DNA of 64,000 nt from Actinomycetota bacterium (GCA_046733275.1 JBKPOW010000052.1:486-64485), one strand, 5' to 3'. Shown: positions 8,773-40,572, counted from the first letter of the stretch. Notes: generated by a model not told the origin, from the sequence alone. Program-made: numbers and translations.

Positions 8773-9414
8773 GTGGCGAGGATCTACGAGGCAACCGTCG
8801 CCCGCGCCTTCTCAGCTTGGTACGGGCGCATGATGCGGCGCATCGACGAGCGCGGGCTGCGCGATGTCCGCCGCGCACTCATCGCCGAGGCCCACGGACG
8901 GGTTCTGGACATAGGCACCGGGACTGGGTCGAACCTGCCCCTGTTTCCAGAGGCAGTCGACCTTGTCCTCTCCGAGCCCAGTCCCAACATGTTGAGGGCT
9001 TTGCGCCCCCGGTTGAGCGAGGAGGGTCGAACCGATGTCGATCTCGTTCAGGCGGGGGCCGAAGATCTGCCTTTTGACGACGCCAGCTTCGATTGCGTTA
9101 CCGCCACATTGGTGATGTGCACGATGCCCGACCCTCGTGCGGGTCTCGAGGAGATCGCGCGCGTACTAAAGCCAGGAGGCGCTTTTCTTTTCTTGGAGCA
9201 CGTCCGCTCGACAAATCATCGTGTCGCCCGAACTCAGGATCGCCTTGAGCGGCCCTGGCGCTTCCTCGCTGACGGTTGTCACTGCAACCGCGACAGCCTC
9301 GCGACGATCGAAGCGTCGCCCTTGACCCTGCAACGAGTCCAGCACGGCCGCATGCCCCTCGCACCCAAATTCATGGATCCCCTGATCTATGGAAGGGCCG
9401 ACCTTGTCTGTTAG
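8773..9414 (+). CDS. Class I SAM-dependent methyltransferase
   Basis: VLDIGTGTGSNL (motif I) and LKPGGAFLFLEHV. Confidence 0.85.
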   Translation: MARIYEATVARAFSAWYGRMMRRIDERGLRDVRRALIAEAHGRVLDIGTGTGSNLPLFPEAVDLVLSEPSPNMLRALRPRLSEEGRTDVDLVQAGAEDLPFDDASFDCVTATLVMCTMPDPRAGLEEIARVLKPGGAFLFLEHVRSTNHRVARTQDRLERPWRFLADGCHCNRDSLATIEASPLTLQRVQHGRMPLAPKFMDPLIYGRADLVC

Positions 9415-10807
9415 CGCCAGCCCCGCCAAGGTTCCCTCGGGGGCAGGTCCGATTGAGTCCAACCTTGCGGCCGCGCTCCCTGCCCCGCCGGTCGTGCCCC
9501 TGCCCGCCTGGGCGCAGATCCTGCGCTTCGACCAGCGCCAGATCGAGTTCGTCTTCCGGGCCAAGCGCGAGCTTGGCGATGTCTTCGCGATGCGACCCGG
9601 CCTTCCTGATGGTCAGGTGGTTACTGGCCTGCCGGATGACGCCCGGTCTCTGTTCACGGCCAAGCCCGAGGACGCGCCCTCAACTTCGGCTGAGTCGCCG
9701 CTGGTGCCGATCCTCGGCCCCGACTCGGTGCTCACTGCCCTCGGAGATCGCCACATGCGCCAGCGAAAGCTGCTCCTGCCGCCCTTTCACGGCGAAGCAA
9801 TCGAGCGCTATACGGAGGCGATCGCCGCGGCAGCCGAGCGCGAGATCGACAGATGGCCGCTGAACCGCCCCTTCGCTCTGGCCCCGCGGATGCAGGCGAT
9901 AACTCTCGACGTGATCATGGCGGGGATCTTTGGAATCCAGGGACGGCCTCCAGCGGGGAGTACGGAGGCGAGGCTCCGCGCGGCCACCAAGCGATTTTTG
10001 GCAATGAGCACCTGGCCTGCCTACCGGCCCTTCGAACTGCTGAACCTGGGACGCCAGGCCCCGGTCGGCTTCAACAAGCTCGCGGTCTGGGTCGGTGAGC
10101 GCACCATTTATCCCCTAATTGCCAAACGTCGCCGCGACGCCGATCTCACCGAGCGCCGCGACATCCTTTCGCTGCTCTTACTGGCGCGCAACGAGGGGGG
10201 CGAGCCGCTCAGCGATTCCGAAATCCACTCGCAGCTCGTAACTCTCATCCTCGCTGGCCACGAGACCACTGCCAACTCTCTTGCTTGGGCTTGGGAGCGA
10301 CTTGTCCGCAATCCGGCCGCCCACGAGCGCCTGCTTGACGCCGTCCGGACTGAAACCGAAGCGGCTGAGGTGATCGAGCAGACGATCACCGAGGCGATGC
10401 GCTCGCGGCCGGTGGTACCGCTCACCGGCCGGCGGGTGGAAAAACCTTGGCGGCTCGGCTCCTACGCGATTCCCGCCAGCACCCCCGTATTCATCAGCAT
10501 CCTCCTCATCCATCATCAGGAGAGCCTCTATCCCGACCCCTTCGAGTTTTGCCCCGAGCGCTGGATCGACCGCAAGCCGGGCACCTACGAGTGGCTTCCT
10601 TTCGGTGGCGCCATTCGCCGCTGCCTTGGGGCAGCACTCGCGATGGCCGAGCAGCGGGTGGTACTCGAGGCGATGGCTCGCCGACTCGATCTCGTCGCTG
10701 CCGATCCCACCCCCGAGCATGCCGTACACCGCAACGTAACGATGATCCCGGCGCGCGGCGCGCGGGTAATCCTCCGGTCGCGGCGCCCCGTCGCCACCGT
10801 CTTCTAG
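9389..10807 (+). CDS. Cytochrome P450
   Basis: AGHETTA (I-helix), EAMR (ExxR) and FGGAIRRCLG (Cys-heme loop). Confidence 0.9.
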   Translation: MEGPTLSVSASPAKVPSGAGPIESNLAAALPAPPVVPLPAWAQILRFDQRQIEFVFRAKRELGDVFAMRPGLPDGQVVTGLPDDARSLFTAKPEDAPSTSAESPLVPILGPDSVLTALGDRHMRQRKLLLPPFHGEAIERYTEAIAAAAEREIDRWPLNRPFALAPRMQAITLDVIMAGIFGIQGRPPAGSTEARLRAATKRFLAMSTWPAYRPFELLNLGRQAPVGFNKLAVWVGERTIYPLIAKRRRDADLTERRDILSLLLLARNEGGEPLSDSEIHSQLVTLILAGHETTANSLAWAWERLVRNPAAHERLLDAVRTETEAAEVIEQTITEAMRSRPVVPLTGRRVEKPWRLGSYAIPASTPVFISILLIHHQESLYPDPFEFCPERWIDRKPGTYEWLPFGGAIRRCLGAALAMAEQRVVLEAMARRLDLVAADPTPEHAVHRNVTMIPARGARVILRSRRPVATVF

Positions 10808-22576: not shown

Positions 22577-23179
22577 GTGCATGTAAGTCAAGATGAGCGC
22601 CGCGCTCGCAGCAGTGCCGCTTTGCTCGAATCCGCCGCTCGCGGGATCTCTCGCTATGGCTACGGCAACCTCGTGCTCGAGCGCGTTGCCGCCGAGGCCG
22701 GCTACACCCGTGGCGCCATCTACCACCAGTTCGCCGGCAAGGAGGAACTTGCCCTGGCCGTGGTCGAGTGGGTCTCGGAGGGTTGGCTGGCGGAGGTGGC
22801 CGGCCCCGCCGAGGCGCTGGCGGACCCGCTGCAGGCGCTGCTCGCTCTCGCCCGCGGCCACGCCGTCTACTGCCGTCGCGACATCGCCCGGGTGCTCGTC
22901 TCCCTACGCGTCGAGTTCGGCGGTCGCGATCATCCCGTCGGCGCCGCCGTCGAGGCCGCTTATGAGACGCTCCTCGTCCTCTGCGGCGACCTGATCGCCG
23001 CGGCTCGCCATGACGGCACGATCCCCGGTGGACCGCCGCCGCGCACGATGGCGCTGGCCTTCGTCGGGGCGGTCGAAGGGCTGGTCATGCAGCTCTATGG
23101 CCACGAGCCCGATGACGAGCTGCTGGCCGAGCGAGCCGTGCTGGGCCTTCTCGCTGCAGATCCGCCGCCCTCTGTCTGA
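22577..23179 (+). CDS. TetR-family transcriptional regulator
   Basis: LLESAARGISRYGYGNLVLERVAAEAGYTRGAIYHQFAGKEEL. Confidence 0.85.
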   Translation: MHVSQDERRARSSAALLESAARGISRYGYGNLVLERVAAEAGYTRGAIYHQFAGKEELALAVVEWVSEGWLAEVAGPAEALADPLQALLALARGHAVYCRRDIARVLVSLRVEFGGRDHPVGAAVEAAYETLLVLCGDLIAAARHDGTIPGGPPPRTMALAFVGAVEGLVMQLYGHEPDDELLAERAVLGLLAADPPPSV

Positions 23180-26741: not shown

Positions 26742-27527
26742 AAACGAGAATTTGTGCGGTGATCGCGGCGGCCGTTGCGCTGCTGTGCATTGGTTCCTCG
26801 GCGCAGGCGTCGGACCGTAACGATCGGTGATCCGTCGCTCGTCACCGGCAACAAAGCCATGGGATGCGGATCGAAAAGCGCTTGCACCTTTGTCGGCATC
26901 GGACTCCCCTCGCAGCTTGGCATTACCAGATCGCCTATCGAGGGCAGGATCATCAGTTGGCGGATGGTGACCTTCGGCAATCCGCCACCTGGCTACGCGA
27001 TCCGCGTGATGAAGGCGTTTGAAGGCCAGAACGATGAATTCACCGGTGGCGCGACGTCGGCACCCGTCAATCCGCCAAGCGTGGTCGGCGGACTGCAGGA
27101 ATTCGCAGCCGACGTCCCGATCGAAGTAAGGGACTACGTCGGCCTTGATGTTCCGGTCAACGGCACGGTCTCGTTGGGGGCCGGGCCGTCGGGCTCTTAC
27201 AGGTACTTCAACCCAACGCTCCCGGTGGGCGAAACCCGCTCGACCGGCGTCTTCTCGCCCCAGCTCGCCTTCAATGCCGAGATCAAGCCCCGACCAGAAG
27301 TCAAAGCGATCGGTCCCACTATCGGGCCCGTCGCGGGTGGCACGCTTGTAACCATCGCCGGGACAGAGCTAGGGGACGTGGTTGGTGTGAACGCAGTCGC
27401 GGGAACGTCACCGAAGCGAAGCGCCGGCGTACGGACCGGCAGGGTTGTCAAGCAGCGGCCCGAAGGTGGCGCCTCGGTTCCAATAGGAACCAAGATCGTC
27501 GTCACTCTGCGCAAACCCGGCAAGTGA
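26742..27527 (+). pseudogene. Secreted protein with IPT/TIG-like and PASTA-like C-terminal segments; frameshift just after the signal peptide
   Basis: The signal peptide MGRETRICAVIAAAVALLCIGSSAQA is in one frame and stops at about 26830. The mature part TVTIGDPSL...IGPVAGGTLVTIAGTELG is in track ORF 26775..27527. Confidence 0.55.
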
Positions 27528-27587
27528 TCGCCGCTGCGCGGCGCTCGGGGTGTCTTCTTTAGAAGAGCGTCGCGCCGAGCATGATCG

Positions 27588-27641
27588 CCTTACGGCCGAG
27601 AGGTCTCGCGAACTCGATGCTATTGGGCACTCCGCAGGAGT
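27588..27641 (+). repeat. Repeat family copy L4, left part, hairpin interrupted
   Basis: CTTACGG..CTCGATGCTATTGGGCACTCCGCAGGAGT aligns with L2 as far as GGAGT and then diverges into IS sequence. Confidence 0.5.
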
Positions 27642-28127
27642 CAGGCAAGGAACGGCTCGTGGAGGTAGCTCCCCGCTGGCGTTTGCGGAGCTGGGGTGGA
27701 TCGATGAGTGGGAGTTCCTGGTGCAGCCCAGGCTGGTGGGCCAATGGGCCGACGTTGCTCGCGGGCCAGCGTGTCGACTCGGCGGCGAGGCCCCGGATCC
27801 CGCGGTCGGCCGACGAGCAGCTTGACCGGCCTTCGCTTGTGAGCCCTGCCGATGCCGATGTGGTGCAGCCTGCTGTCGTGGCGCAGGGTCACGGTGCCGC
27901 TGGCGTCGACCTTGTCCTCGCGGACACGGAAGTGGGTCTCTGCTGAGGGAGAGCCAGGTGCCCGCGCCTTGGCCCGGGCGCCGAAGGCCTGCACGGGCAT
28001 GCGCCCGCCGAGTGCCCTGTGTGGCCTTCTCGCGTTGTAGTAGCTGGTGAAACCGTCGAGTTGCCGTTGCAGGTGGGCAGCGGTGATGTCAGACAACGCC
28101 CTCGCCTACCGCAGGTCGAACGTCTTC
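27642..28127 (-). mobile_element. IS481-family transposase remnant (C-terminal third, frameshifted tail)
   Basis: LQRQLDGFTSYYNARRPHRALGGRMP..HFRVREDKVDASGTVTLRHDSRLHHIGIGRAH. Confidence 0.7.
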
Positions 28128-28129
28128 AA

Positions 28130-28185
28130 GCGATTAGCGGCGATATCGGCCGGTTCCGCGTCGCTTCCGCCAGCGGCGGGGGAGC
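28130..28185 (+). repeat. Repeat family tail fragment (GCGATTAGCGGCGATATCGGCCGGTTCCGCGTCGCTT)
   Basis: Near-identical to 3019-3055 (GCGATTAGCGGCGATTTCGCCCGGTCCCGCCTCGCTT). Confidence 0.6.
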
Positions 28186-28590
28186 TAAGTTTGCCGGCGC
28201 CAAGACATAAGTGCCCCTGGCGGCGCGCTAACGCCCCGGGGCCTGGCCACGAAGCACCTTCTGTCGGTAAGCGATCCCTTCGACGCCCTGGACTCGGAGC
28301 GCGCGACCTGAGTGTCTCCAATCAGGCCCTACGTCTTCCCGCCCCGCAAGCCGAAAGCCAAAGGCCCGCCACCGGAGCCGATCCTCCGGGGCACTCCGGC
28401 GGGACGGGCCCTCACCGACTCATTCGACCCGACCGCGGATCTCTGCGTCGACGTTGTGATCGGCGAGCCGGTCGACGGCCTCAACAACAGCGGCTGACGG
28501 GCACGCGCCTGTAGAGCGGGCCACGTCCCTGCGTCGGTCGATTGCCCTGGCCAGCGCCGTCAGCGCGATCGCGGGCTCCTGAGAGCTCTC

Positions 28591-28619
28591 TTGACATTCA
28601 GACACACGTGTGTCTTAAT
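28591..28619 (+). promoter_or_regulatory. Sigma70-type promoter candidate: TTGACA, 17 nt, CTTAAT
   Basis: -35 at 28591-96 and -10 at 28614-19, about 125 nt upstream of the first gene of the big operon. Confidence 0.55.
28600..28615. promoter_or_regulatory. Perfect 16-bp palindrome AGACACACGTGTGTCT in the promoter spacer (operator candidate)
   Basis: Read directly from the sequence. It overlaps the -10 element by 2 nt. Confidence 0.7.
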
Positions 28620-28744
28620 CCCCCGCAGCACGAGAAACACGGATGTCCGCGTTTCTCGTGACCACAGGGAACAGGATCAAAAGAGCCATGGGGCCGCCCA
28701 GGGAAGCGGCAGGCAGGGGCTCTAGCGGACAAGGAGAGAGATAC

Positions 28745-31700
28745 GTGAGACGCCACGCACCGCTTGCGGGAACGACCGGCGAGAAGTCGGCTCGCTTCCC
28801 CTGTGTCACCGTTGCCTTTCGCTTCTTCGCCGCCACCGTCTTCGCGCTCCTGCTCCTCAGCCCCGCCGCAAGCGCTCAGCGCGGCACTGTTCAGATCATC
28901 GATACGGGTGGAAGCGTCGCCAGCGTCGCCGTCGACGACGCGAGCGGCGACCTCTACGTTGCCTCGGGCGCAAACATCAAGGTCTATGACGCGTCCGGCG
29001 CATTTCAGTTCGAGTTCGGCGAACCGGCGAGCGACCTCGCCATCGACCAGGTCAGTCACAACGTCTACGCCCTTGAATCAGGCAAGCAACGCGTCGCCAA
29101 GTACGACGCAGCGGGCAATTTCCTCTTCTACTTCGGTTGGAACGTCAACCTTACCGAGGTCGGCAGCGCTCCCGAGATCTGCCCGAGGGACGGTTTCCCG
29201 GGAGATGTTTGCCAGGAGGGGGAGCCACGCAGGGACCCCGGCGCCATTGGATATCCGCGTGACCCTAAAATAGGAAATGATTTCTCAATCGCAGCTGCCG
29301 GAATTGCTGTGGGTCCTGGCGGGGCGGTATTCATTTCCGAACCGGGTGCAATCGAAATCGATATCTCCGAAAACGTCACGCGCGGCAATAATCGCGTCCA
29401 AATCTTTAGTAAATCGGGCGAATTTTCATCGACTTTCTCTCTCCCCTTCGATCCGAATTGCGATCCTCAAGTATTCGAATGTATTCAAACGTCCAACCAC
29501 GAGCCCGATCAAATCGCTGTCGACAGCCAGGGAGTGATCTACACCACTCCAGTTTCGTCCGGTGAAACCGCCGACCCCCGCTTCCCCGGTTGCAGCCTTG
29601 TGGCCAATTTCCAAGTATGCGTCGTCAAGCGCTTCACCTCTTCGGGGACCCAGCTGGCCGACTTCGCCCCCTCGCGGGTCTTTCCTAAACTCTTCGACAT
29701 AGCCGCCGACTTGAGCAACGGCGACATCTACGTCTATCAGGCCAGTAGTAAAGAGGCGAGGCAGTACGAGATCGCTGTCTACAGCAATCAAGGTAGCTTC
29801 CTGGAAGACGTAGCACTCGGCCTTCCGCCAGACGGTTCTGGCTTGGCCGTGCGCGCCGGTACCAGCCGGGCCTATACGTCAGACGGCACCAACCGCGTTT
29901 TCGTGCTCGACACGATCGCCCTCCTCCCCGAAGCGACGATGGACTCGGTCGCCGACATAACTTCCGGTGGCGCAACGTTCCACGGCACGGCAAACCCCCG
30001 GACGAGCGAAATCGAAACGGGCTATGTCTTCGAATACCGTCCTGACGGTGAGGACGACTGGACTCGAGTCTCGAGTTCGGACGTCCCGATCGGAACCGGC
30101 ACCGACCCGGTTCCGGTTACGCAGGAAGTCAGCGGCCTTGCGCCCAACACCACCTACCATGCGAGGCTCACGGTAGCCCGCGAACTGGGGGCGGGAGCGG
30201 CTCGTTCCAATGAGATTTCGTTCACCACCGACGCTGAGATCCCCACGGTCTCGCGCCTCGGCGCGTCCCGAATCACCGATACCGGCGCCCTGCTCGGTGC
30301 GCGGATAGACCCCAGGCACGCCGCCACCTCCTATTACTTCCAGTACGGGACCGATACGAGCTACGGAAGAACGGCTCCCGTGGCAGGGAACGGCGACGCC
30401 GGCGCCGGCCTCGGCGAAGTCGCCGTCTTCGAGCGCATCGAGGGCCTGACTGCGGACACCACCTATCACTACTGCCTCGTGGCGGAGAATTTCGTCGGCC
30501 AAGCTCCCTGCGAGGACCACACCTTCGGGACCACGACTACGGCGGCCCAGGATTGGTCGGCGCGGGGCCTCGAGCTCGTCAACGAGCCCGACAAGGGAAA
30601 TCAGAGCGCTCTGTACCCCGCCGGCACCTTCGACAACCAACGCATCATCTCTCCCGACGGCAGCCGTGTGCTGTGGGGGACCACCTCCGGCACGCCCGAC
30701 AGCACTGGCGGTAACGCCCCCTCTTTCGTCTCGAGGCGAACGCCGAGCGGTTGGCAAACCACCCCCTTTGCCCCGACCGTCGATCAGCAGCCCGATGGCT
30801 TTGCTGGAAGGCTCACCTACCGGCTCGTGGCGGCCAGCACCGAGCTCGACCAATTCATCGCCGTGGCAAGCGAAGGCCCCGGCTCGATCGCCGAATCGCT
30901 GCCGAACTACCTGGCACGCGTAAAAAGCCCATCTGAGCAGGAAGAGTTGGCACCGGTGACCTACGGAAGCTCGTTCGAATATTCAGAAGAGTTAGTCGCC
31001 TCGGCAGACCTTTCTCGGGCGGTCCATTCGCGGTTCCTGATCGGCTTCGAGGTCGGCCCCGATATAACGATCGCGACGCCGGACTGCGGGGGAGGGACCC
31101 GCGCCGGTCCGCCGATGTTGTCGGCTGGCGGTGCTCCTTCCCCGATGGGCAGCGCTGCCAATCCGGTCACCCACGACTATGCCTTTCTTTACAGCGCATC
31201 CGACAGCGGCTGCGGCGAATTGCCGGAGCTGTACGCGACCGACTTCGCGACGAACACTCCAACCCTGATCTCCGGTCCGGCGCTCGGCGCCCAGCGGGGC
31301 GCGTCGTTGATCGGAACCAAGCCCAGCGGCGAGGAAGCCCTGTTCGTCAGCAGGTCCCAGCTGGTCGCCGAGGACGCCGACAGCGGAAACGACGTCTACC
31401 TCTGGAAGGCGAGCGGAGGCCCGCCGAGCTGCCTTTCCTGTGACGTGGCCGGGTTCAACCCTTCGGAAAACCGCCACATCGCCAAGGCCTCGCGCGACTT
31501 CAGCCACGTCTACTACCTCGGCGCCGACGGGGCGACCTACGTCCTGCGAACCGAAACTCATGAGCTCCATCTCGTCAGCCTTGGCAAAACGCTCGTCACC
31601 GACGAGCGCACCAGGATCACCCCGGATGGCGATGTGGCGCTCTTCCGCTCGGTGGACGCGGGCACGGCCGACGAGAACCCCCGAAAACGCGGGCTGCTCT

Positions 31701-32302
31701 TCCGCTATGACGACCGGACCGAGAGCTTGGAGTGCGTGTCGTGTCAGGAGTTCAGCCACGGGCTCGGCGGAGATTCTGGCGGCGGGGTGTTCGAGGACAT
31801 CGTGGTCTCAGACGACGGCGATACGGTCGCCTTCTCCACGGGGGCGGCGCTCTCTCCGCGCGACATCAACCAGGAGATCGATGCCTATGAGTGGCACAAC
31901 GGCGTCGTGCGCCTGGTCACCGACGGAGTGCACGAGTGGCCGCACAATATTTACGGCGGCACGCCGCTGGTGTGGGGGATCTCGTCCAGCGGCAGAGATC
32001 TCTTCTTCTCGGCGGGCGGCGCCCGGCTCACCGGAGAAGAGCATGACTATTACGCGAATGTCTACGACGCGAGAATCGGCGGCGGCTTCTCTCAACCGGC
32101 CCCGCCGGCCCACTGCGCGGAGGACGCCTGCCAGGGCCCCCTGAGGCCGAGCCCTGCGCTCGACATCCAGGGCAGCTCCAATTTCCATGGTGCCGACACG
32201 CGGAAGGCCGCGCGGGCGCACCGGAAGAAGCGCCGGCACAAACGCCGACACAACCACCGGCGAGCACATAGCAAGCGGTCGGAGGGTCGTCGCCGTGGTT
32301 GA
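28745..32302 (+). CDS. Giant secreted protein: signal peptide, NHL-type beta-propeller repeats, FN3-like FEYG domains, PD40/TolB-like propeller, polybasic tail
   Basis: The GTG follows AAGGAGAGAG. NNRVQIFSKSGEF (NHL), YVFEYRPDG..GLAPNTTYHARL and YYFQYGTDTSYG..TADTTYHY (FN3-like), DGSRVLWG/DVYLWK/DGDVALF (PD40-like), ending KKRRHKRRHNHRRAHSKRSEGRRRG. Confidence 0.8.
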   Translation: MRRHAPLAGTTGEKSARFPCVTVAFRFFAATVFALLLLSPAASAQRGTVQIIDTGGSVASVAVDDASGDLYVASGANIKVYDASGAFQFEFGEPASDLAIDQVSHNVYALESGKQRVAKYDAAGNFLFYFGWNVNLTEVGSAPEICPRDGFPGDVCQEGEPRRDPGAIGYPRDPKIGNDFSIAAAGIAVGPGGAVFISEPGAIEIDISENVTRGNNRVQIFSKSGEFSSTFSLPFDPNCDPQVFECIQTSNHEPDQIAVDSQGVIYTTPVSSGETADPRFPGCSLVANFQVCVVKRFTSSGTQLADFAPSRVFPKLFDIAADLSNGDIYVYQASSKEARQYEIAVYSNQGSFLEDVALGLPPDGSGLAVRAGTSRAYTSDGTNRVFVLDTIALLPEATMDSVADITSGGATFHGTANPRTSEIETGYVFEYRPDGEDDWTRVSSSDVPIGTGTDPVPVTQEVSGLAPNTTYHARLTVARELGAGAARSNEISFTTDAEIPTVSRLGASRITDTGALLGARIDPRHAATSYYFQYGTDTSYGRTAPVAGNGDAGAGLGEVAVFERIEGLTADTTYHYCLVAENFVGQAPCEDHTFGTTTTAAQDWSARGLELVNEPDKGNQSALYPAGTFDNQRIISPDGSRVLWGTTSGTPDSTGGNAPSFVSRRTPSGWQTTPFAPTVDQQPDGFAGRLTYRLVAASTELDQFIAVASEGPGSIAESLPNYLARVKSPSEQEELAPVTYGSSFEYSEELVASADLSRAVHSRFLIGFEVGPDITIATPDCGGGTRAGPPMLSAGGAPSPMGSAANPVTHDYAFLYSASDSGCGELPELYATDFATNTPTLISGPALGAQRGASLIGTKPSGEEALFVSRSQLVAEDADSGNDVYLWKASGGPPSCLSCDVAGFNPSENRHIAKASRDFSHVYYLGADGATYVLRTETHELHLVSLGKTLVTDERTRITPDGDVALFRSVDAGTADENPRKRGLLFRYDDRTESLECVSCQEFSHGLGGDSGGGVFEDIVVSDDGDTVAFSTGAALSPRDINQEIDAYEWHNGVVRLVTDGVHEWPHNIYGGTPLVWGISSSGRDLFFSAGGARLTGEEHDYYANVYDARIGGGFSQPAPPAHCAEDACQGPLRPSPALDIQGSSNFHGADTRKAARAHRKKRRHKRRHNHRRAHSKRSEGRRRG

Positions 32303-32333
32303 GCCGAGAAAGAACGAGGGGAACGAGGCAATA

Positions 32334-35300
32334 ATGACCTGCAAGGATCAAAGCCAGCGCCTACGTAAGGCGGTCGGCATAGCCCTTCTCTCTTTGGCCG
32401 CCCTGCTGATGATGGCCGGCTCGGCGTCCGCGGCAGTCGAATGGGAAGTGAACGCTCAGTGGGGTGACACCGTGCTGCGCCCCGGCGGCACCGGCGAGTT
32501 CATGCTCCGCGTCAAGAACGTCGGCACCACCGATGCCAGCGGGGCGGTGACCTTGAAGGAGCATCTGCCGCCAGGAGTGACGATGACGGGCTTCGCCACC
32601 CGAGGCCTGGCGTGGCAGTGCTTTGGGACGCAGACCGTCACCTGCGCCACGAACCTGCTGGATTCCCTCGGCAATCCGACCGGAACGGCGATGAGCACCA
32701 CCATGGAGACTTCGCATTACCTACCTCAGCTCTTCATCGAAGTCGCAGCAAGCCCGGATGCCTCCGGCACCAAGCTCAACACGGTGACGGTATCCGGAGG
32801 GGGAGGGGCGGTCGCCTCGACCAGCATGCCGGTCAGCTTCGGCGACCAGCCGACCGACTACGGCATCCTCCCGCACAGCTTCTCGCCCGCCGACGTCTAT
32901 GACACACGTTCACCGGGCCTCGGCCGCGAGCGGCAGGCCGCCACCCATCCCGAGGAGCTGAGGGTGAGGTTCGACATGAATCTGGTGCACGATTTCAATA
33001 TCAAAGGGGAATCGTTCACCGAACCGGCCGGACGTCTCCGAACCGCGGAGGTGTCGTTGCCGCGAGGCCTGGTCGGCAACCCCGAGGCGCTGCCCAAGTG
33101 CGCGACCAGCGACTTTCTGCAGGAAGGACTGAGTCCGTTCACCGCGACGGGCTGTCCCTCCAATACCCAGGTCGGCTATATCGACCTGGAGCTCAACCTC
33201 AGCGCGACGGAACATGGCTACGGAATCTTCAGTGGCGCCGGAAACGCCTTTTCCCGCATAGCCATATACAACCTCGTCGCGCCGAAGGGCACGCCGGTGG
33301 ACCTCGGCTTCCGCGCCGGTGGCTTCGTCTACGGGCATATCTACGCGCAACTGGACCCGACGAGGGACTATGCGATCAAGTCGATTTCCCCCGATATCAG
33401 CACGGGCGCGCCGGTGCGCGGGGCGCGGGTTACGATCTGGGGTGTTCCGGGGGACCCGGCGCATGACCTCTACAGGGCGGTCCCACCGGTCAACTTCACC
33501 CCAGGCGGAGCGGCTATCCATGACCGCGATCCCTACGGCGCCGCCTTCACCAACGCGCCGGTCAGGCCGTTTCTGACGATGCCCTCCGATTGCGGCACGG
33601 ACAACGGCCCCTTCCTGATGCGGGCAGACTCCTGGGCGGCAAAAGGGGAGTTCACGCCGCTGCTCGAGGGCGAAGAGCGCGTCAACGTGGAAGGTTGCGA
33701 TGACCCACGCATCCGCTTCGAACCGGAAGTCTCGATCCAGCCGACGACTAGGGACGCGAGCCAGCCGACCGGCCTCGACATCCATTTGGAGACCCCGCAG
33801 CGAGACCAGACGATCGGAGGTCCAGAGCAGGCCGGCAAGCTCTATGACCAAAGCGGCAACCTGCACGCGATCGACACCCCGCCGATCAAGAAAGTGGTCG
33901 TGCGCATGCCCGAGGGGATGACGCTCTCCGCCTCAGCGGCCCAGGGCCTCACCGCCTGCAGCGCGGCCCAGATGGGCATCGGCAACAACGACCCGGTCAC
34001 CTGCCCGGATGCCTCCCAGTACGGGACCTTGACCCTGCACACCCCCGTGCTGCCACCCGATGAACCGATGAAGGGCTTCATCTACATCGCCAAGCAGAAG
34101 GAAAACCCCTTCAACGACTTCTTGGCGATGTACTTCGTGATCGAGGACTCCGAGCGCGGCCTGCGTATCAAGATTCCCGGCCGCGTCCAGCTCGATCCGG
34201 TAACGGGGCAGATCACGACCACCTTCGACGACCTGCCCCAGTTCCCGCTCTCCGACGTGCAGCTGACCTTCAAGTCGGGAGTCAGAGCGGCGCTCGTCAA
34301 CCCGGCCACCTGCGGCAAAAAGACGATCTCGGCCACCTTCTACTCCTGGGCCGAACCAGACAACCCGATCCCCAGCGACACCGACTACTCGGTGACCCAG
34401 AAGGCAGACGGCTCGCCCTGCTTCAACAACCTCGCCGAGCGCCCCTTCAAGGCGCAGATGTCGGCGGGGATGGTCAACCCCAACGCCGCCTCTTATAGCC
34501 CCTTCGTCTTCCGCATGACGCGCTCGGACGACGATCAGGAGCTGTCGCAGATCGGCGTCTCGATGCCGGCCGGGCTGACCTCGAAGCTGGCCGGGATAAC
34601 CCGCTGCTCCGAGGAGGCGATAGCGGCGGCCTCGAACCCGCTTCGCACGGGCACCGAAGAGGCAAGCTTCCCATCCTGTCCCGCCTCGAGCCAGGTGGGC
34701 ACTACCGAGGTCGGCTCAGGTGTCGGGGTTCCCCTCACCTTCGTCCCCGGCAAGGTCTACCTGGGCGGACCCTACAAAGGCGCGCCCCTGTCATTGGTCG
34801 TCATAACCCCGATCCTCGCCGGCCCCTATGACCTCGGCGTGATCGCGGTCAGAAGCGCGATCTCCCTCGATCCCAAGACCACTGCGGTAAGCGTTCTCAC
34901 CGATCCCTTCCCGCAGATCTTTCAGGGCATCCCGGTACGTCTCAGAGACATTCGCGTGCGGATCGATCGCAAGGACATGATGCGGAACCCGACCAACTGC
35001 GATGTCAAGCAAATCCACGCGCATCTAACCGGGGCCGGAGGAGAGGTCAATACCACCGCCGATGACACAGCGGCAGATCTCTATGAACGCTTCCAGGTCG
35101 CCAACTGCGCGGCGCTTCGCTTCAAGCCGAAGCTCAGCTTCCGCCTCAAGGGGGGTACGAAGCGAAACGACCATCCCGCCTTCACCGCGACCCTTACCGC
35201 AAAGGACGGCGAAGCCAACATCGCCAGAGCCGCGGTCACCCTGCCCCACTCGGTCTTCTTGGATCAGTCCCACATAAGGACGGTCTGCACCAGGGTGCAG

Positions 35301-35756
35301 TACGCAGCAGACCAGTGCCCGCAAGGAGCGGTCTACGGCCGCGTCAGGGCCTGGACCCCGCTGCTTGACGAAACCCTGGAAGGACCCGTTTACATGCGTT
35401 CATCAAGCCATCAGCTGCCCGACGTGGTCGCGACTCTGAACGGCATCCTCGACGTTGAACTCGTCGGCCGCATCGATTCGGTCAAGGGCTCCCTGCGCAC
35501 CACCTTCGACTTCGTCCCAGACCAGCCGGTGAGCAGGTTCGTACTTTCAATGCCGGGAGGAGGGAAGGGCCTCCTGGTCAACTCGACCAATACGTGCAAG
35601 TCAACCAACCGGGTCAAAGTCCTGCTCGACGGGCAAAACGGCAAGACCGCCGATCAGTTCCCCAAGCTGCGGAACGGCTGTGCCAAGGAGACACGGCGGG
35701 CAAAGGCGCGAGGGGCCAGGCGAGCAGAGCGCAAGAGCGGGAGGACGGGCCGATGA
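32334..35756 (+). CDS. Giant secreted protein: signal peptide, DUF11/CARDB-like N-domain, repeated roughly 200-aa Cys-pair modules, basic tail
   Basis: The ATG follows gaggggaacgagg. Signal peptide LLMMAGSASA. GTGEFMLRVKNVGTTDASGAVTLKEHLPPGV. A recurring LP.G..(C)..CP..SQVG..P.L..P..G.VY pattern occurs at least 3 times. Confidence 0.8.
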   Translation: MTCKDQSQRLRKAVGIALLSLAALLMMAGSASAAVEWEVNAQWGDTVLRPGGTGEFMLRVKNVGTTDASGAVTLKEHLPPGVTMTGFATRGLAWQCFGTQTVTCATNLLDSLGNPTGTAMSTTMETSHYLPQLFIEVAASPDASGTKLNTVTVSGGGGAVASTSMPVSFGDQPTDYGILPHSFSPADVYDTRSPGLGRERQAATHPEELRVRFDMNLVHDFNIKGESFTEPAGRLRTAEVSLPRGLVGNPEALPKCATSDFLQEGLSPFTATGCPSNTQVGYIDLELNLSATEHGYGIFSGAGNAFSRIAIYNLVAPKGTPVDLGFRAGGFVYGHIYAQLDPTRDYAIKSISPDISTGAPVRGARVTIWGVPGDPAHDLYRAVPPVNFTPGGAAIHDRDPYGAAFTNAPVRPFLTMPSDCGTDNGPFLMRADSWAAKGEFTPLLEGEERVNVEGCDDPRIRFEPEVSIQPTTRDASQPTGLDIHLETPQRDQTIGGPEQAGKLYDQSGNLHAIDTPPIKKVVVRMPEGMTLSASAAQGLTACSAAQMGIGNNDPVTCPDASQYGTLTLHTPVLPPDEPMKGFIYIAKQKENPFNDFLAMYFVIEDSERGLRIKIPGRVQLDPVTGQITTTFDDLPQFPLSDVQLTFKSGVRAALVNPATCGKKTISATFYSWAEPDNPIPSDTDYSVTQKADGSPCFNNLAERPFKAQMSAGMVNPNAASYSPFVFRMTRSDDDQELSQIGVSMPAGLTSKLAGITRCSEEAIAAASNPLRTGTEEASFPSCPASSQVGTTEVGSGVGVPLTFVPGKVYLGGPYKGAPLSLVVITPILAGPYDLGVIAVRSAISLDPKTTAVSVLTDPFPQIFQGIPVRLRDIRVRIDRKDMMRNPTNCDVKQIHAHLTGAGGEVNTTADDTAADLYERFQVANCAALRFKPKLSFRLKGGTKRNDHPAFTATLTAKDGEANIARAAVTLPHSVFLDQSHIRTVCTRVQYAADQCPQGAVYGRVRAWTPLLDETLEGPVYMRSSSHQLPDVVATLNGILDVELVGRIDSVKGSLRTTFDFVPDQPVSRFVLSMPGGGKGLLVNSTNTCKSTNRVKVLLDGQNGKTADQFPKLRNGCAKETRRAKARGARRAERKSGRTGR

Positions 35757-38218
35757 AGACCGTCAAGGCAGGGTTCGCCACCGCGATAGCCGCCGCGGCG
35801 CTGCTCTCGGCGATCGCCGTCCCCGGTGCGGACGCAGAAGTGCTCTACCAGAAGACCGACCTGCTGGTGCCGACGAATGCTTATTTCCCGAGCGGCATGG
35901 ACATCGACCACTCGACTGGTGATCTTTATGTGGCGGGGGTTCACCAAGGCCTTCACCGCTTCAGTCCCGATCGGGTCGAAACCACCTACGGGCCCGCAAT
36001 CGACTTCAAGTCGGTAGCGGCGGCGCCGGAGCATAAGTCCTTCGGGCTGACCGCGAAAACGACCAGGATGATTGCGTTGGACGCCTCAGGCAACCAGACT
36101 GCCTCCTTCGGCGTAGGTGGCTCGCCCGGCGATATCGGCACCGATGCCGCCGGCAACGTCTTCGTGCCCGCCCCGGCCGCCATAACCAACGAGCAGCAGA
36201 CGCTGACGATCAGCGCGACCGGCGGCACCTACACGCTCAGCTTCGAAGGGCAGAGCACGGGCACGATGTCATTCGATGCCAGCGCGGAAGAAATTCAAAC
36301 TGCCCTGGAAGGGCTCTCGCCGATCGGCGCCGGCAACGTCGAAGTCAGCGGCAGGACCATCACCTTCCAAGGCGTGCTCGCTGGCATCGACGTACCCGAG
36401 CTCACCGCCGACACTTTGCTCTTGACCGGCGGCTCGCTGAAAGTCGAAACGACCGTGATCGGCTCGACCTATCCCCTCGCGGGCGTGCGCGAGTTCAGCC
36501 CCACCGGCACCCTGAAGCAGGTGATTGACTGCAGCGCCTGCCCCGCGCCGGCTGAATTCAGCAAACCCGCGGCGGTCGACTTCGACGCAGACGGCAACAT
36601 GTATGTGGCAGATTCCGGTGGAGCGCGCGTGATCAAGTTCGTCGCATCGGCCGGCGATCCGACCGATTACACCTCTGTGCCGCCGGAGGTCTTCAGCACG
36701 GGCGCCTCGGTAGCTGTAGCGGTGGACCGCTCCAACGGCGATGTCTTCATCGGTGGAGACGACGGCAGTGGCTATCACGTCACCGGATACCACTCCGATG
36801 GAGTCAAGTTCACCGATTTCGGTCTTGGTGAGCTCGACAACCTGGGCGAACTGGCCGGCGAATTCTTTGGCATGTTGCCCGACCAGCTCGCGGTCGATCC
36901 GCAGACCGGCCACGTCCATGTCGATGACATCAACTTCAGTGGGGAAAGCCGTATCTGGGAGTATGCCCCCGTTCTCGCTCCAACCGAGAGCCCTCTACCG
37001 GCAAGTGGCATCACCCAGGACACTGCCACCCTCAACGCCACGGTCAACCCAATGGGCGACACGGTCATCGCCTGCCACTTTGAATATGGCCTCGACACGA
37101 GCTACGGCCAAAGCACCGAGTGCGCCGACTACCCGGGCTTTGGCACCGACCCGGTCGGGGTAAGCGCCGACATTGGTGGCCTGGCCCCAAACACCACCTA
37201 CCACTACCGAGTGGTGGCCACCAACGCGGCGGGCACGAGCGAAAGCACAGATGAAGAATTCACGACCCTGGTAGAGAAGCCGATCGTCTCGACTGGATCC
37301 GCCTCCGCGATCAGCGCAACCGCAGCGACGATCTCAGGCTCGGTAGATCCCAAAGGCAGCGCGACCAGCACCTGCCATTTCGAATACGGCACCACCACCG
37401 CCTATGGCAGTCAGGCCCCCTGTCCCACCGACCCCGGAGAAGGCCAGGGAGCCGTAGGGGAGTCCCTCCCCGTCAGTGGCCTGGCCCCCAACACCACCTA
37501 TCACTACCGCCTGGTGGCTGAGAACCCAGGCGGGACTTCCCGGGGGGCCGACGGCTCCTTCAAGACCCTGCCCAGGGCACCGGGCACGAGCACCGGATCG
37601 GCCTCTGACCTGACCCCGACCACCGCAAAGGTCGCAGGCTCGATCGATCCTCAGGGGGTGCAGGCCTCCTACCGCTTCGAATACGGCACGACTCCGTCCT
37701 ATGGTCAAAGCAGCCCCGCGGGCGGTGCCGGCGGCCAAGGAGCGCAAGCGGTGGCGGTTTCCCTGGCATCGCTCAAACCCTCGACCACGTACCACTATCG
37801 CCTCATTTCAAGCAACGCGGGCGGCGCTACCCAAGGTGCCGATCGGACATTCACCACTCAAGCACGCCCCAAGGGCAGGTTGATATTGCCCGCCACTGCG
37901 GTGCTCAGAGGCAAAAAGGCGGCGGTCCCGCTCGAGTGCAGAGGCGCCAAGATTGCTATCTGCGAAGGCACCCTGACCCTGCGCGCCAGGGTGAAACAGG
38001 GAATTCGCTTGACCTTGGTCCAGATCGGTCAGGCGGCTTTCCAGGTCGACGGCGATGAGACCAAAGCGGTCTCGGTCACCCTCAACGGCAACGGCAGGAA
38101 AGCCCTTGCCGGCACAGACGGAAAAGCGCTTAGAGCAATCGCTTCTGCCGACGGCCACAACCGCGAAGTGCGCATTTCCCCGCGCGCAAAACGCAGCAAG
38201 CATGCGAAGAAGCGCTAG
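35753..38218 (+). CDS. Secreted NHL-repeat plus 3x FN3-like (HFEYG..APNTTYHYR) protein, basic tail
   Basis: ATGA overlap with the previous gene. Signal peptide AAALLSAIAVPGADA. There are three tandem domains of about 95 aa, ending PRAKRSKHAKKR. Confidence 0.8.
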   Translation: MKTVKAGFATAIAAAALLSAIAVPGADAEVLYQKTDLLVPTNAYFPSGMDIDHSTGDLYVAGVHQGLHRFSPDRVETTYGPAIDFKSVAAAPEHKSFGLTAKTTRMIALDASGNQTASFGVGGSPGDIGTDAAGNVFVPAPAAITNEQQTLTISATGGTYTLSFEGQSTGTMSFDASAEEIQTALEGLSPIGAGNVEVSGRTITFQGVLAGIDVPELTADTLLLTGGSLKVETTVIGSTYPLAGVREFSPTGTLKQVIDCSACPAPAEFSKPAAVDFDADGNMYVADSGGARVIKFVASAGDPTDYTSVPPEVFSTGASVAVAVDRSNGDVFIGGDDGSGYHVTGYHSDGVKFTDFGLGELDNLGELAGEFFGMLPDQLAVDPQTGHVHVDDINFSGESRIWEYAPVLAPTESPLPASGITQDTATLNATVNPMGDTVIACHFEYGLDTSYGQSTECADYPGFGTDPVGVSADIGGLAPNTTYHYRVVATNAAGTSESTDEEFTTLVEKPIVSTGSASAISATAATISGSVDPKGSATSTCHFEYGTTTAYGSQAPCPTDPGEGQGAVGESLPVSGLAPNTTYHYRLVAENPGGTSRGADGSFKTLPRAPGTSTGSASDLTPTTAKVAGSIDPQGVQASYRFEYGTTPSYGQSSPAGGAGGQGAQAVAVSLASLKPSTTYHYRLISSNAGGATQGADRTFTTQARPKGRLILPATAVLRGKKAAVPLECRGAKIAICEGTLTLRARVKQGIRLTLVQIGQAAFQVDGDETKAVSVTLNGNGRKALAGTDGKALRAIASADGHNREVRISPRAKRSKHAKKR

Positions 38219-38981
38219 GGCTCTTTCCCTGGCCGCTGCGCTGGCGATCGCCGTGGTGGCGATTGCCGGCGCCGAGGTGGGCCAGCAAGGCAACCTGCGG
38301 GTCGCCTTCGAAGGCAAGATCACCCCCCACGCCCTGCCGAGGAACAAAGAGGTGCCGGTCGCGGTCTCCTTCAGTGGCCGCATCACCACCACCGACAACA
38401 GCGAACCTCCGCCGCTTCGAACAATCCGCCTGGCGATCAACAGAAACGGCCACATCGACTACAAGGGCCTGCCCAAATGCCGCTACAACCGCATTCAGCC
38501 CTCGAACAACCACGAGGCGCTCGAGGCCTGTCGTTCCTCCTTCGTCGGCATGGGGCACTTCTCGGCCAAGGTGCTGTTGCCAGAACAATCCCCCTTCCCC
38601 TCGGAGGGCAAGGTCTTGGCCTTCAACGGCGAAATGCTCCAGCACCCGGTCATCTTCGCCCACATCTATGGCACCAGGCCGGTGGCCACGTCCTTTGTGC
38701 TCCCCTTCGTCGTCCGTCATTCAAATGGGCGCTACGCCACCACCCTCGTTGCCTACCTGCCCAAAGTGGGCGTTAAATGGGGCTTCGTCACCGCTGTCAG
38801 CTTGAAGCTGCAGCGCACCTTCGAGCTGAACGGCCGCACCCATAGCTACCTCTCCGCTGCTTGCAGCGCTCCCGATGGCTTTCCCGGCGCCATCTTCTCC
38901 TTCGCCAAAGCCGAATTCGCCTTCGCCGAAAACCGGACCGTATCGACGCCTTTGACCCGCAGCTGCAAGGTGCGGGACTGA
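38202..38981 (+). CDS. Secreted 259-aa protein homologous to the Cys-pair module of the 32334..35756 product
   Basis: 17-nt overlap with the previous gene. Signal peptide LAAALAIAVVAIAGA. LRVAFEGKITPHALPR..LPKCRYNRIQ..ACRSSFVGMG..EGKVLAFNG. Confidence 0.7.
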   Translation: MRRSARALSLAAALAIAVVAIAGAEVGQQGNLRVAFEGKITPHALPRNKEVPVAVSFSGRITTTDNSEPPPLRTIRLAINRNGHIDYKGLPKCRYNRIQPSNNHEALEACRSSFVGMGHFSAKVLLPEQSPFPSEGKVLAFNGEMLQHPVIFAHIYGTRPVATSFVLPFVVRHSNGRYATTLVAYLPKVGVKWGFVTAVSLKLQRTFELNGRTHSYLSAACSAPDGFPGAIFSFAKAEFAFAENRTVSTPLTRSCKVRD

Positions 38982-38999
38982 GACTGGCGGCTTAGGACG

Positions 39000-39745
39000 G
39001 CGCTAAGACCAGCTCGGGCGGATTCCGCCTGAGTGAATCGCTGGGCATACGCCGTCGGACGATTCCCCGGGGGTCTCGCCGCTCGTGTCTGGGTAGGTTG
39101 TCTCCATGTCCGGCGAAGCGCGTTGCGAGTCGAGACTGAAGCGTCCCTCACCGCCATCGTTGCCGAGCGTGTCTACGCGGGCGTTGAGCTCGCCGACGTG
39201 TTGGCGGCCGCGGGCACAGCGGAGGCAGGCTTCTCACCACGTCGGCCGCCTTGACGGTGGGGAATGCCCGTGAGGCCAAAAACAGGCGAGTGATCGTCGA
39301 GCATGTTGAGGATCTCCGCGCGTCCTCCTGTGGCGGGGGCCAGTGGGTGACGTCGGCCTGCCACATCTCGTTGGGCAGCTCGGCTTCAAAGCGAAGGAGC
39401 GAGGAGCGCGGGCGCTGCGCTCGGCCAGGTGGTAGGCGATCGTCGCCGCTCCGCAGTCGTGGCCTTCCTTGCTCAGCTGTCTGCGCAGGGCGACGATCGC
39501 ATCGGCGAGCTCGGCAGAGGTCCCGTTCGACGAGCTGCGCGGCGCCCTGGAGCGGCGCTCCAGGGCGCCATACCCGCCCGCCCTGTAGCGGGCCAGGAGC
39601 TTGTAGATCCAGCTGCGATGGACTCCGTGCGCCGCCGCCAGCTCGCTGACTGGGCGGCCCTCAACAGATGCGCCTCCACCAGATACCGCGCCTTGTCCCA
39701 CAGGAGAGCTCCCCTCATTGGAGATCCTCCCCCCGTAATTCCTGA
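39000..39745 (-). mobile_element. IS481-family transposase remnant (N-terminal HTH through the DDE core), with multiple frameshifts and a deletion
   Basis: GRPVSELAAAHGVHRSWIYKLLARYRAGGYGALERRSRAP, FEAELPNEMWQADVTHW and EILNMLDDHS, spread over three frames. Confidence 0.7.
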
Positions 39746-39759
39746 GATTCAGATGGAGA

Positions 39760-40330
39760 GGCCGAGCGCAGCGAGGCCGCCGCAGAATCCCTGGAAGCAC
39801 AGAGAGCCGGCGCCGAGCGCGATGCTCGCCGGGCCGTGGCGCGCGGGCTGGTGGCCGCGCTCGACGCAAAGATCAGAACCGCCCTGATGGCCCACCCGGA
39901 CGCCGAAGTCTTCGCTCCCCTGTTCCGCAGCGCCAAGACGACGATCTGCCCGGCGACTCTGATCGCTGAGATCGGTGACCGCAGGGGCCGCTACCCCACC
40001 GAGGCCGCGCTGGCGGCCGACGCAGGAATGAGCCCGGTCGCGCTGGAGTCGGGGAAGATGCGCGTCGCGACCTTCAGGCGCGCCTGCGACAAGCGGCTGC
40101 GAAAAGCCGTCACAGTCCTCGCCGACTCCACCCGCCACTGGCATCCGTGGGCCAAGGACGTCTACGAGCGAGCCCGGGCCAGAGGCTAGGACCATCCGCA
40201 CGCGACCCGCACCCTGGGGCGCGCCTGGATCAGGGTTCTGTGGCGCTGCTGGCAGGACGGAGTGCCCTACCTCCCGTCCTTGCACGGGAACCTGGGATTC
40301 GGTGTCTCCTATGTCCTGACACAGGTGTCG
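39760..40330 (+). pseudogene. IS110-family (DEDD) transposase, C-terminal half only, with an in-frame TAG at 40187
   Basis: TLIAEIGDRRGRYPTEAALAADAGMSPVALESGK..RRACDKRLRKAV..WAKDVYERARARG*DHPHATRTLGRAWIRVLWRCWQDGVPY. Confidence 0.75.
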
Positions 40331-40351
40331 CTTATGTGGTGGAAACCGGAC

Positions 40352-40470
40352 ACCATCAGCCGCTTCGCTTCGAATCCCCTGCACTTCGGCGGGTTGGCCC
40401 TCCGGGAGGAAATCAACCATCCTGTCGCCTCCATTTTGGGCATTAGTGCCCGAAATGACGCGGATGCCAC
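40352..40470 (+). repeat. Module D: last 12 nt of the tRNA-like core, spacer, R-type box with GGGCATTAGTGCCC palindrome
   Basis: CCATCAGCCGCTTCGCTTCGAATCCCCTGCAC aligns with 23748-23780. Palindrome at 40438-51. Confidence 0.6.
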
Positions 40471-40572
40471 CTAGATTGGGCGCGCCGCAGATCCTCCCTC
40501 AGGTTCCTGAGCGTGAAGGCACGGTGCAATCCTATGGCACCCTTTCAGCCGCTTTACTTCGCGCCGCGAGGG

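Follow-up and report, generated by a model that had tools for sequence, protein, structure and literature searches.

Several described systems are built from beta-propellers or chains of small beta domains. The Gram-positive adhesins with immunoglobulin (Ig)-like stalks, such as PrgB of Enterococcus, the staphylococcal Sdr proteins and the pilins, have a Sec signal peptide and long stalks of tandem beta-sandwich domains. Integrin alpha carries a propeller head on Ig-like legs. The teneurins and the RHS proteins TcB-TcC are very large and extracellular, and in them an NHL propeller is joined with FN3-type domains. PD40-type propellers are known from TolB, and alpha-2-macroglobulin and other thioester proteins are chains of beta-sandwich domains of similar size. 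Here we analysed a stretch of 64,000 nucleotides from an Actinomycetota bacterium (GCA_046733275.1 JBKPOW010000052.1:486-64485; the window), in which a four-gene operon at positions 28591 to 38981 encodes the proteins P1 to P4. The operon shares traits with all of these systems and differs from each. In contrast to the Ig-stalk adhesins its products have neither an LPXTG motif nor a C-terminal hydrophobic segment; a polybasic tail is found instead, the domains appear disulfide-stabilised and the heads reside on a separate polypeptide, P1. Integrin legs were recurrent Foldseek matches of P2 and P4, yet this is an analogy only: heads and legs are separate products, template modelling (TM) scores are at most 0.37, and sequence similarity and a transmembrane segment are absent. 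Unlike teneurins and TcB-TcC, the operon has no YD/RHS shell and no C-terminal toxin. Unlike TolB, the PD40-type propeller has no Tol-Pal context, occurs in a Gram-positive lineage, is fused to NHL and FN3 domains and has added CxxC pairs. The resemblance of P2 to alpha-2-macroglobulin is at the level of the fold; the matches are global and weak, and Pfam alpha-2-macroglobulin domains are missing from the operon proteins. The domain types are ordinary. As far as Pfam, NCBIfam, Rfam and the literature were searched, the family, its paired architecture, its tail signature, its scale and its leader are undescribed. The core pair, P1 and P2, is massively expanded in one soil lineage and consists of exported, disulfide-rich multi-domain proteins. 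We tentatively propose that the operon encodes a non-covalently anchored extracellular complex for binding or adhesion, with a propeller head on an Ig-like stalk.

The operon consists of four long open reading frames (ORFs) on the plus strand (Table 1). Between the TGA stop of P1 (32300-32302) and the ATG of P2 at 32334 lies a gap of 31 nt which contains a GAGG-type ribosome-binding site. The end of P2 and the start of P3 have the ATGA at 35753-35756 in common. The ATG of P4 at 38202 precedes the end of the TAG stop of P3 (38216-38218), an overlap of 17 nt. The same-strand packing given in a preliminary description of this DNA was exact to the base, and the protein sizes were reproduced with its start codons. 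Because of the 31-nt gap and the 4-nt and 17-nt overlaps, translational coupling of the four genes is likely from the arrangement. The GTG start of P1 is supported by an AAGGAG 8-9 bases 5' of it; this spacing and the first codons V-R-R-H-A recur in about 30 related genes.

To what extent are these genes kept together? In a genome scan of species representatives the best 80 of at least 596 matching stretches were analysed, corresponding to 79 loci (numbered with the prefix L). All retained loci belonged to Solirubrobacterales or to unclassified Actinomycetota. The related loci were from Solirubrobacterales metagenome-assembled genomes and none from a cultured isolate; the window itself is from a soil metagenome. 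Adjacency was counted from tblastn coordinates because the gene caller, based on GC content at third codon positions, sometimes chose antisense ORFs over P4-type genes. In 69 of 75 loci no more than 600 nt separated the end of the PD40 domain of a P1-type gene from the P2 gene downstream (73/96 when adjacency was scored by gene count). Of 78 loci, 31 had a P4 gene somewhere 3' of P2, often beyond a second P1-P2 pair, and in 19 the P4 start was no more than 1 kb away. Only in two loci, L003 and L006, was P2 immediately followed by a P3-like gene, and these repeat the exact four-gene order. Amino acid identities to the window were ~30% for P1, 55% for P2 and 64-66% for P4. P3 of L003 was 42% identical over its full length, and in L006 only the C-terminal ~93 residues of P3 were present as an ORF (47%). 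With an adjacency of 69/75 versus a four-gene order in just two other genomes, the P1-P2 pair is the conserved unit, kept across hundreds of Solirubrobacterales loci; P4 frequently joins it as a third gene, and P3 is accessory to a single subtype. According to the preliminary description, homologs that are never co-located would have spoken against it, and co-occurrence of the four genes as a set was to be checked. Co-location is borne out by the P1-P2 pairs. The set holds in part: the genes do occur together elsewhere, but among the loci analysed the full order was limited to L003 and L006.

The family is large. Hundreds of full-length P2 relatives, all unnamed, are present in Solirubrobacterales metagenome-assembled genomes, and an exhaustive profile search returned 13,363 clusters at 50% identity, 4,808 of them at E<=1e-30, all unannotated. 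Giant relatives of 3,400-7,161 residues (P0305-P0310, P0361) contain 7-16 stretches which match the P2 profile; therefore, the P2 module is also used in much longer chains. For the 2.77-Mb chromosome OY969094.1, five loci were examined and together contained at least nine genes of P2 type; this is a minimum, as the analysis was confined to the best 80 matches. In most genomes the cassettes are placed among housekeeping genes, e.g. topoisomerase and thymidylate kinase in L001. A family of ~230 residues with an N-terminal membrane anchor and short repeats of the AVT..KI type is often encoded 3' of P4 (L001:14224-14922, L024:13977-14669, L080:14037-14741 and nine others), often followed by a small lipoprotein family (~175-225 residues) and PucR-like regulators. 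None of these three is present in the window, where P4 abuts insertion sequence (IS) DNA. A literature search found no paper on any family member.

P1 to P4 each possess a single N-terminal hydrophobic segment which ends in an Ala-x-Ala-type site, the two features by which signal peptides were judged. The number of cysteines after the signal peptide is even throughout, 16 in P1, 18 in P2, 8 in P3 and 4 in P4. Sec-type signal peptides and even numbers of conserved cysteines argue for proteins that are exported and disulfide-bonded. A sequence scan of P1-P4 found no hydrophobic window beyond the signal peptide, no lipobox and no LPXTG with a hydrophobic tail; an LPXTG near the C-terminus, which would mark a sortase anchor, was absent from all four. 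Pfam and NCBIfam searches with P1-P4 returned at threshold no catalytic family, no SLH or other known surface-layer (S-layer) domain, and no RHS/YD repeat or toxin domain; nothing related to the latter was retrieved from PDB by sequence. Thus, what the preliminary description had stated on signal peptides, on missing anchors and on missing catalytic domains is upheld, and no match to a characterised S-layer, teneurin/RHS or sortase-anchored family was encountered in Pfam, NCBIfam or PDB.

P2 is composed of the signal peptide, a DUF11-like Ig domain, four beta modules of ~230 residues and a basic helical tail. The DUF11 match (residues 44-109) scored 17.3 bits, below the Pfam cut-off of 24.6; the homolog P0070 carries PF01345, and several homologs are labelled by the Joint Genome Institute as TIGR01451 family. 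The four modules, M1 to M4, are homologous according to hhalign, with probabilities of 95.7% (M1-M2), 94.3% (M1-M3), 64.4% (M1-M4), 98.2% (M2-M3) and 98.6% (M2-M4); the exception is the pair M3-M4 with 9.7%. Each contains two conserved cysteine pairs, and the resulting eight pairs are invariant in 28 homologs. P2 is indeed built from repeated Cys-pair modules, as had been noted before. A PDB sequence search with P2 gave nothing informative. The AlphaFold2 model was all-beta with a predicted local distance difference test (pLDDT) of 84, and its Foldseek matches were the Ig-like domains of PrgB (best), a mastigoneme protein, integrin alpha legs and alpha-2-macroglobulin with related thioester proteins. 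P2 is therefore predicted by modelling to be a long chain of beta-sandwich domains.

P4 consists of a signal peptide and an all-beta fold with two conserved cysteine pairs (pLDDT 85). Foldseek retrieved no match at E<=0.001 in PDB or BFVD; among the weaker matches were Sdr, RrgA and CppA. The cysteine spacing of 17 and 34 residues is that of a P2 module, and the elements come in the same order: three strands, a Cys-helix-helix-Cys loop and about eight strands. We rejected P4 as a P2 module since these two traits are all that agree: BLASTP between P4 and P2 was not significant, and hhalign gave 0.3-2%, whether P4 was compared with the whole P2 profile or with the single modules. The earlier claim that P4 is a free-standing copy of this module is thus not sustained, and a copy would be a guess from structure.

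In P1 the signal peptide is followed by an NHL-like propeller, two FN3 domains, a PD40-type propeller and a polybasic tail. In P3 the signal peptide leads into an NHL propeller with an insert and then three FN3 domains; the C-terminus is made up of a small beta domain and a basic tail. The two are paralogs (E 5e-28, 32% identity over one NHL blade and the FN3 domains; the FN3 pair of P1 is 36% identical to FN3 domains of P3). By itself P1 stays below the Pfam cut-offs, with 14.3 bits for NHL and 20.9 bits for fn3. P3 passes them, with 26.6 bits versus 20 for NHL (PF01436) and 37.3 bits versus 25 for fn3 (PF00041), and it matches the designed NHL 'Pizza' propellers and PknD in PDB (E 2e-10). 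The combination of NHL and FN3 units in both proteins, already recognised in the preliminary description, thereby holds for P3 directly and for P1 through its paralog. From sequence P3 would be an accessory paralog of the N-terminal half of P1. The insert in its propeller region is a repeat module of ~60 residues (36140-36427, residues ~130-225; consensus GGTYTLSF.GQ.T..I.F.AS...IQ.AL..L..IG..NV.V), which matches repeats of gp23, a phage tail-tip protein of solved structure (9d93, E 1.5e-16), and also the tail-tube protein gp19 from that entry.

The second propeller of P1 had been called PD40/TolB-like. In the window copy the C-terminal half (residues ~600-1185) had no PD40 match at E<=0.1. 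When it was aligned with 20 orthologs, 13 of the 21 members matched PD40 (PF07676), the best with E 3e-10, and so the assignment holds for the family and not for the window copy itself. The profile of this half matched TolB marginally (E 0.29); PDB sequence searches with it and with P1 yielded nothing informative. A motif ...YDARIGGGF..P.PP..C....CQGP (CxxxxCQGP) is conserved in the PD40 half, and the CxxC pairs C896/C899 and C997/C1000 (window 31430-31441 and 31733-31744) are invariant in 21 orthologs. They could form a metal site or cross-blade disulfides.

The C-termini have a signature of their own. The mean net charge of the last 30 residues was +14.4 in 78 P1 relatives and +8.4 in 102 P2 relatives, versus +0.85 in 435 other proteins from the same loci. 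In the window the tails read ...HRKKRRHKRRHNHRRAHSKRSEGRRRG in P1, ...RRAKARGARRAERKSGRTGR in P2 and ...RAKRSKHAKKR in P3. The bodies of P1 and P3 are acidic.

Taken together, we envisage the following mechanism. P2 would form a rod-like stalk, and P1 would pair with it 1:1 and provide ligand-binding heads, i.e. the NHL and PD40 propellers. P3 may be a second head in this subtype, and P4 an auxiliary subunit with a structure like that of a single P2 module. The polybasic tails could tether the complex to anionic wall polymers or to the membrane surface and so replace LPXTG and SLH anchors. The many divergent paralogs per genome suggest a distinct ligand or surface for each cassette. Several points weigh against this proposal. 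The interaction of the subunits is deduced from gene adjacency, and P3 and P4 are missing from most loci, hence they are not obligatory parts. The fold of P2 matches generic Ig-like chains with TM-scores of at most 0.19. The basic tail is a putative anchor. The window copy is embedded in degraded IS sequence and lacks the usual neighbouring regulators. Finally, NHL and PD40 propellers occur in enzymes too, so that a catalytic role is possible.

This last point leads to the rival which survives best, although we consider it unlikely. P1-P4 might be secreted enzymes or enzyme carriers for the breakdown of extracellular polymers, with catalytic propellers of lactonase, lyase or peptidase-like type and with FN3 and Ig-like domains that bind the substrate or serve as spacers. 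The six- and seven-bladed propellers of the NHL and PD40 classes do include enzymes, the P2 relative P0108 contains fused SGL/NHL-type domains and is labelled as sugar lactone lactonase in its source, and the TetR regulators which adjoin related cassettes would suit substrate-induced expression. The best Pfam matches of P3, which passes the threshold for Pur_ac_phosph_N, are N domains of the PhoD/purple acid phosphatase type; however, these span the FN3-like fold only and no catalytic domain. Given that a catalytic family is lacking at the Pfam and NCBIfam thresholds and that PDB sequence searches gave no enzyme match, and with the conserved basic tails and the obligatory P2 partner left unexplained, enzymes fit less well than a binding complex.

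Quite unlikely in our view is a structural role in the envelope, i.e. self-assembly into an S-layer-like lattice, a sheath or a fibril, the paralogs being variants. Large, exported, acidic proteins with basic anchoring tails would agree with it, as would genes kept in pairs and an Ig-like rod which resembles filament proteins such as mastigonemes. But known S-layer domains, SLH included, are absent by Pfam, nothing bears on self-assembly, and at least nine divergent copies per small genome, with operator types of their own, better fit regulated, specialised functions. Antagonistic cargo of a mobile element, be it teneurin/RHS-like toxin delivery or a phage-derived receptor-binding machine, is highly improbable: a low-GC segment with IS fragments, the teneurin-type combination of NHL and FN3 and the P3 module in common with a phage tail-tip protein stand against the lack of YD/RHS repeats, toxin domain, immunity gene and nearby phage genes, a P4 unmatched among viral structures, cassettes mostly located among housekeeping genes, and flanking IS pieces which are one broken element and no functional transposon.

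We return to the proposed binding complex and its expression. The start coordinate of the preliminary description, 28591, is the first T of a TTGACA which opens a promoter-like site. A strict consensus promoter scan did not call this site because position 2 of its -10 hexamer is T. TTGAC/TTGCA boxes align at the matching position upstream of P1-type genes in ~40 loci. The palindrome in the spacer is a candidate repressor operator; it is identical at the same place in L065, near-identical in L026 and L068 and different in others. Among the neighbours in related loci the TetR family is the most frequent, with 87 single-domain and 20 double-domain genes in 81 loci, and its genes often form a pair just upstream of P1. 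In the window no TetR gene adjoins the cassette; the nearest, at 22577-23179, lies beside a P450 gene. Expression would thus start from a sigma-70-like promoter with a palindromic operator in its spacer.

Downstream of the promoter a variable hairpin is followed by a conserved leader motif. The hairpin is part of the minimum-free-energy fold, and L026, L065 and L068 have one at the matching place with another stem sequence. The leader motif is 81-89% identical at the nucleotide level to at least 35 loci, in which the coding DNA is merely 65-70% identical. A covariance model, R1, built from 34 copies scored 71.4 bits at the window copy and matched 54 sites in 1.77 Mb. Every site was on the cassette strand, ahead of either a P1-type gene or another gene that itself lies upstream of one. 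A search of 27500-40500 against Rfam was negative at E<=1. In the consensus fold a nested hairpin with the loop AAGGGAA precedes unpaired ACAAGGAG. The window copy folds likewise (z = -3.0), with the outer stem GAGCC/GGCUC, the inner stem GCCGC/GCGGC, the AAGGGAA loop and then the unpaired Shine-Dalgarno region ACAAGGAGAGAG. Covariation is weak: 96% of cells pair, yet the pairs are kept mostly by C-to-U changes giving G-U, with one double change, and the structure is therefore plausible but unproven. A GGA-containing loop beside a GGA-containing Shine-Dalgarno sequence is the layout of CsrA-type repression. The leader is a candidate cis-regulatory element; by setting a GGGA-rich loop beside the Shine-Dalgarno sequence it suggests translational control. 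When evidence for transcription was sought, the sequence occurred only in DNA runs of one soil metagenome.

Table 1. Features of the operon and its flanks; positions are those of the window.
Feature	Position	Strand	Remarks
P1	28745-32302	+	1185 aa; GTG start
P2	32334-35756	+	1140 aa
P3	35753-38218	+	821 aa
P4	38202-38981	+	259 aa
Promoter-like site TTGACA-17 nt-CTTAAT	28591-28619	+	read from sequence
Perfect 16-nt palindrome AGACACACGTGTGTCT in promoter spacer	28600-28615		unique in window
Variable leader hairpin, 15-bp stem	28629-28660	+	inverted repeat, 93% complementary
Conserved leader motif, ~85 nt	28668-28750	+	nested hairpin, Shine-Dalgarno, GTG start
3' gene remnant, last ~58 codons	28321-28496	+	79-83% nt identity to L026, L056, L065
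IS481 half, ORF B (rve_3 end)	27779-28072	-	80% nt identity to L084:10019-10311
IS481 half, ORF A (helix-turn-helix and start of DDE core)	39235-39719	-	83-87% nt identity to L084:9210-9773
IS481 outer end	40297-40355	-	97% nt identity to L084:9155-9212
IS110-family Transposase_20 fragment (PF02371)	39836-40189	+	inside 577-bp insert 39720-40296

The cassette is flanked by IS481 sequence on both sides. As reference we used the element L084:9155-10381, called as ORF A (252 residues) and ORF B (126 residues); a distant Arthrobacter IS481 was discarded as too divergent. The left piece has an rve_3 match and 75% amino acid identity to ORF B of L084. The right piece is frameshifted, has a 76-bp deletion and matches HTH_29, HTH_32 and HTH_28. 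On the minus strand of the window 40355-40297 corresponds to L084 9155-9212, 39719-39417 to 9210-9512, 39416-39235 to 9589-9773 and 28072-27779 to 10019-10311. The pieces are thus co-oriented, do not overlap and are consecutive on the reference, with 11.2 kb (28073-39234) between them. The comparison did not place the break to the base, since 39000-39234 is too degraded to assign. In our reading a single element was split into these two complementary halves by an insert of ~11 kb, which is simpler than two copies trimmed exactly complementarily. A composite transposon was rejected, with L084 9155-9773 at right and 10019-10311 at left making up one element and not two copies. The IS481 sequence in the same orientation on both sides, reported earlier, is accordingly confirmed, but a bracketing pair is not, the remnants being halves of a single element. 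An assembly chimera was rejected as well: two independent Logan contigs span both junctions at an even depth of ~9-10x. The flanking remnants are 80-87% identical to the L084 element at the nucleotide level and differ from an intact IS481 in being split by ~11 kb, frameshifted, internally deleted and interrupted by an IS110-type fragment, whose 577-bp segment separates the outer end from ORF A. In the closest IS481 relatives the transposase is called as two ORFs of 252 and 126 residues (L084:9228-10381), and all 64 database matches to the C-terminal IS481 piece of the window are short (77-180 residues; P0241-P0304). This suggests that in this IS481 group the transposase gene is typically frameshifted or split.

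The ~11.2-kb insert comprises the gene remnant and the four genes with their native promoter and leader; ~250 bp of it are unassigned and a further ~250 bp too degraded to assign. Terminal repeats or a target-site duplication were not seen. Full-length relatives of the gene remnant precede P1-type genes in L026, L056 and L065, and the C-termini align to the stop codon; in these relatives they contain Gly/Asp-rich repeat sequence. The cassette looks like a piece excised from a larger locus of related type and dropped into the IS. To the left of the IS481 piece an ORF at 26775-27527 has weak TIG and PASTA matches at its C-terminal end only; it may be another truncated surface-protein gene. The segment from 2.9 to 45.7 kb has a GC content of 65.7% (cassette 63.8%) versus 70-72% at the window ends, a composition which supports a foreign origin, and it contains accessory genes for P450s, TetR, PIN, DUF4145 and a carotenoid oxygenase. 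The placement within a tRNA-Gly accessory region was not substantiated: composition is what speaks for it, and no integrase was present among the 20 ORFs tested. What remains of the mobile, multi-subunit extracellular assembly of the preliminary description is a set of exported proteins with no recognisable catalytic domain and with co-located P1 and P2; a composite mobile element is not there, and the assembly is something we infer.

For the P2-type family there is no Pfam or NCBIfam model and no solved structure, and no literature was found. Assuming ~7 kb for each of at least nine pairs, we estimate that the P1-P2 pairs account for at least 2% of a 2.8-Mb genome. The leader motif is a candidate for a new regulatory RNA which marks a regulon and is directly testable. 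The widest reading, in which soil Solirubrobacterales have multiplied a new class of modular extracellular receptor/adhesion complex, with propeller heads, a disulfide-stapled Ig-like stalk and polybasic tethers, to some ten or more divergent copies per small genome, every copy under a ligand-responsive operator of its own and all sharing a new leader RNA that gates translation, we regard as rather unlikely. If the cassettes do encode surface binding complexes, they would be a main interface of Solirubrobacterales cells with their surroundings, and they would offer a starting point for finding what these bacteria attach to or capture.

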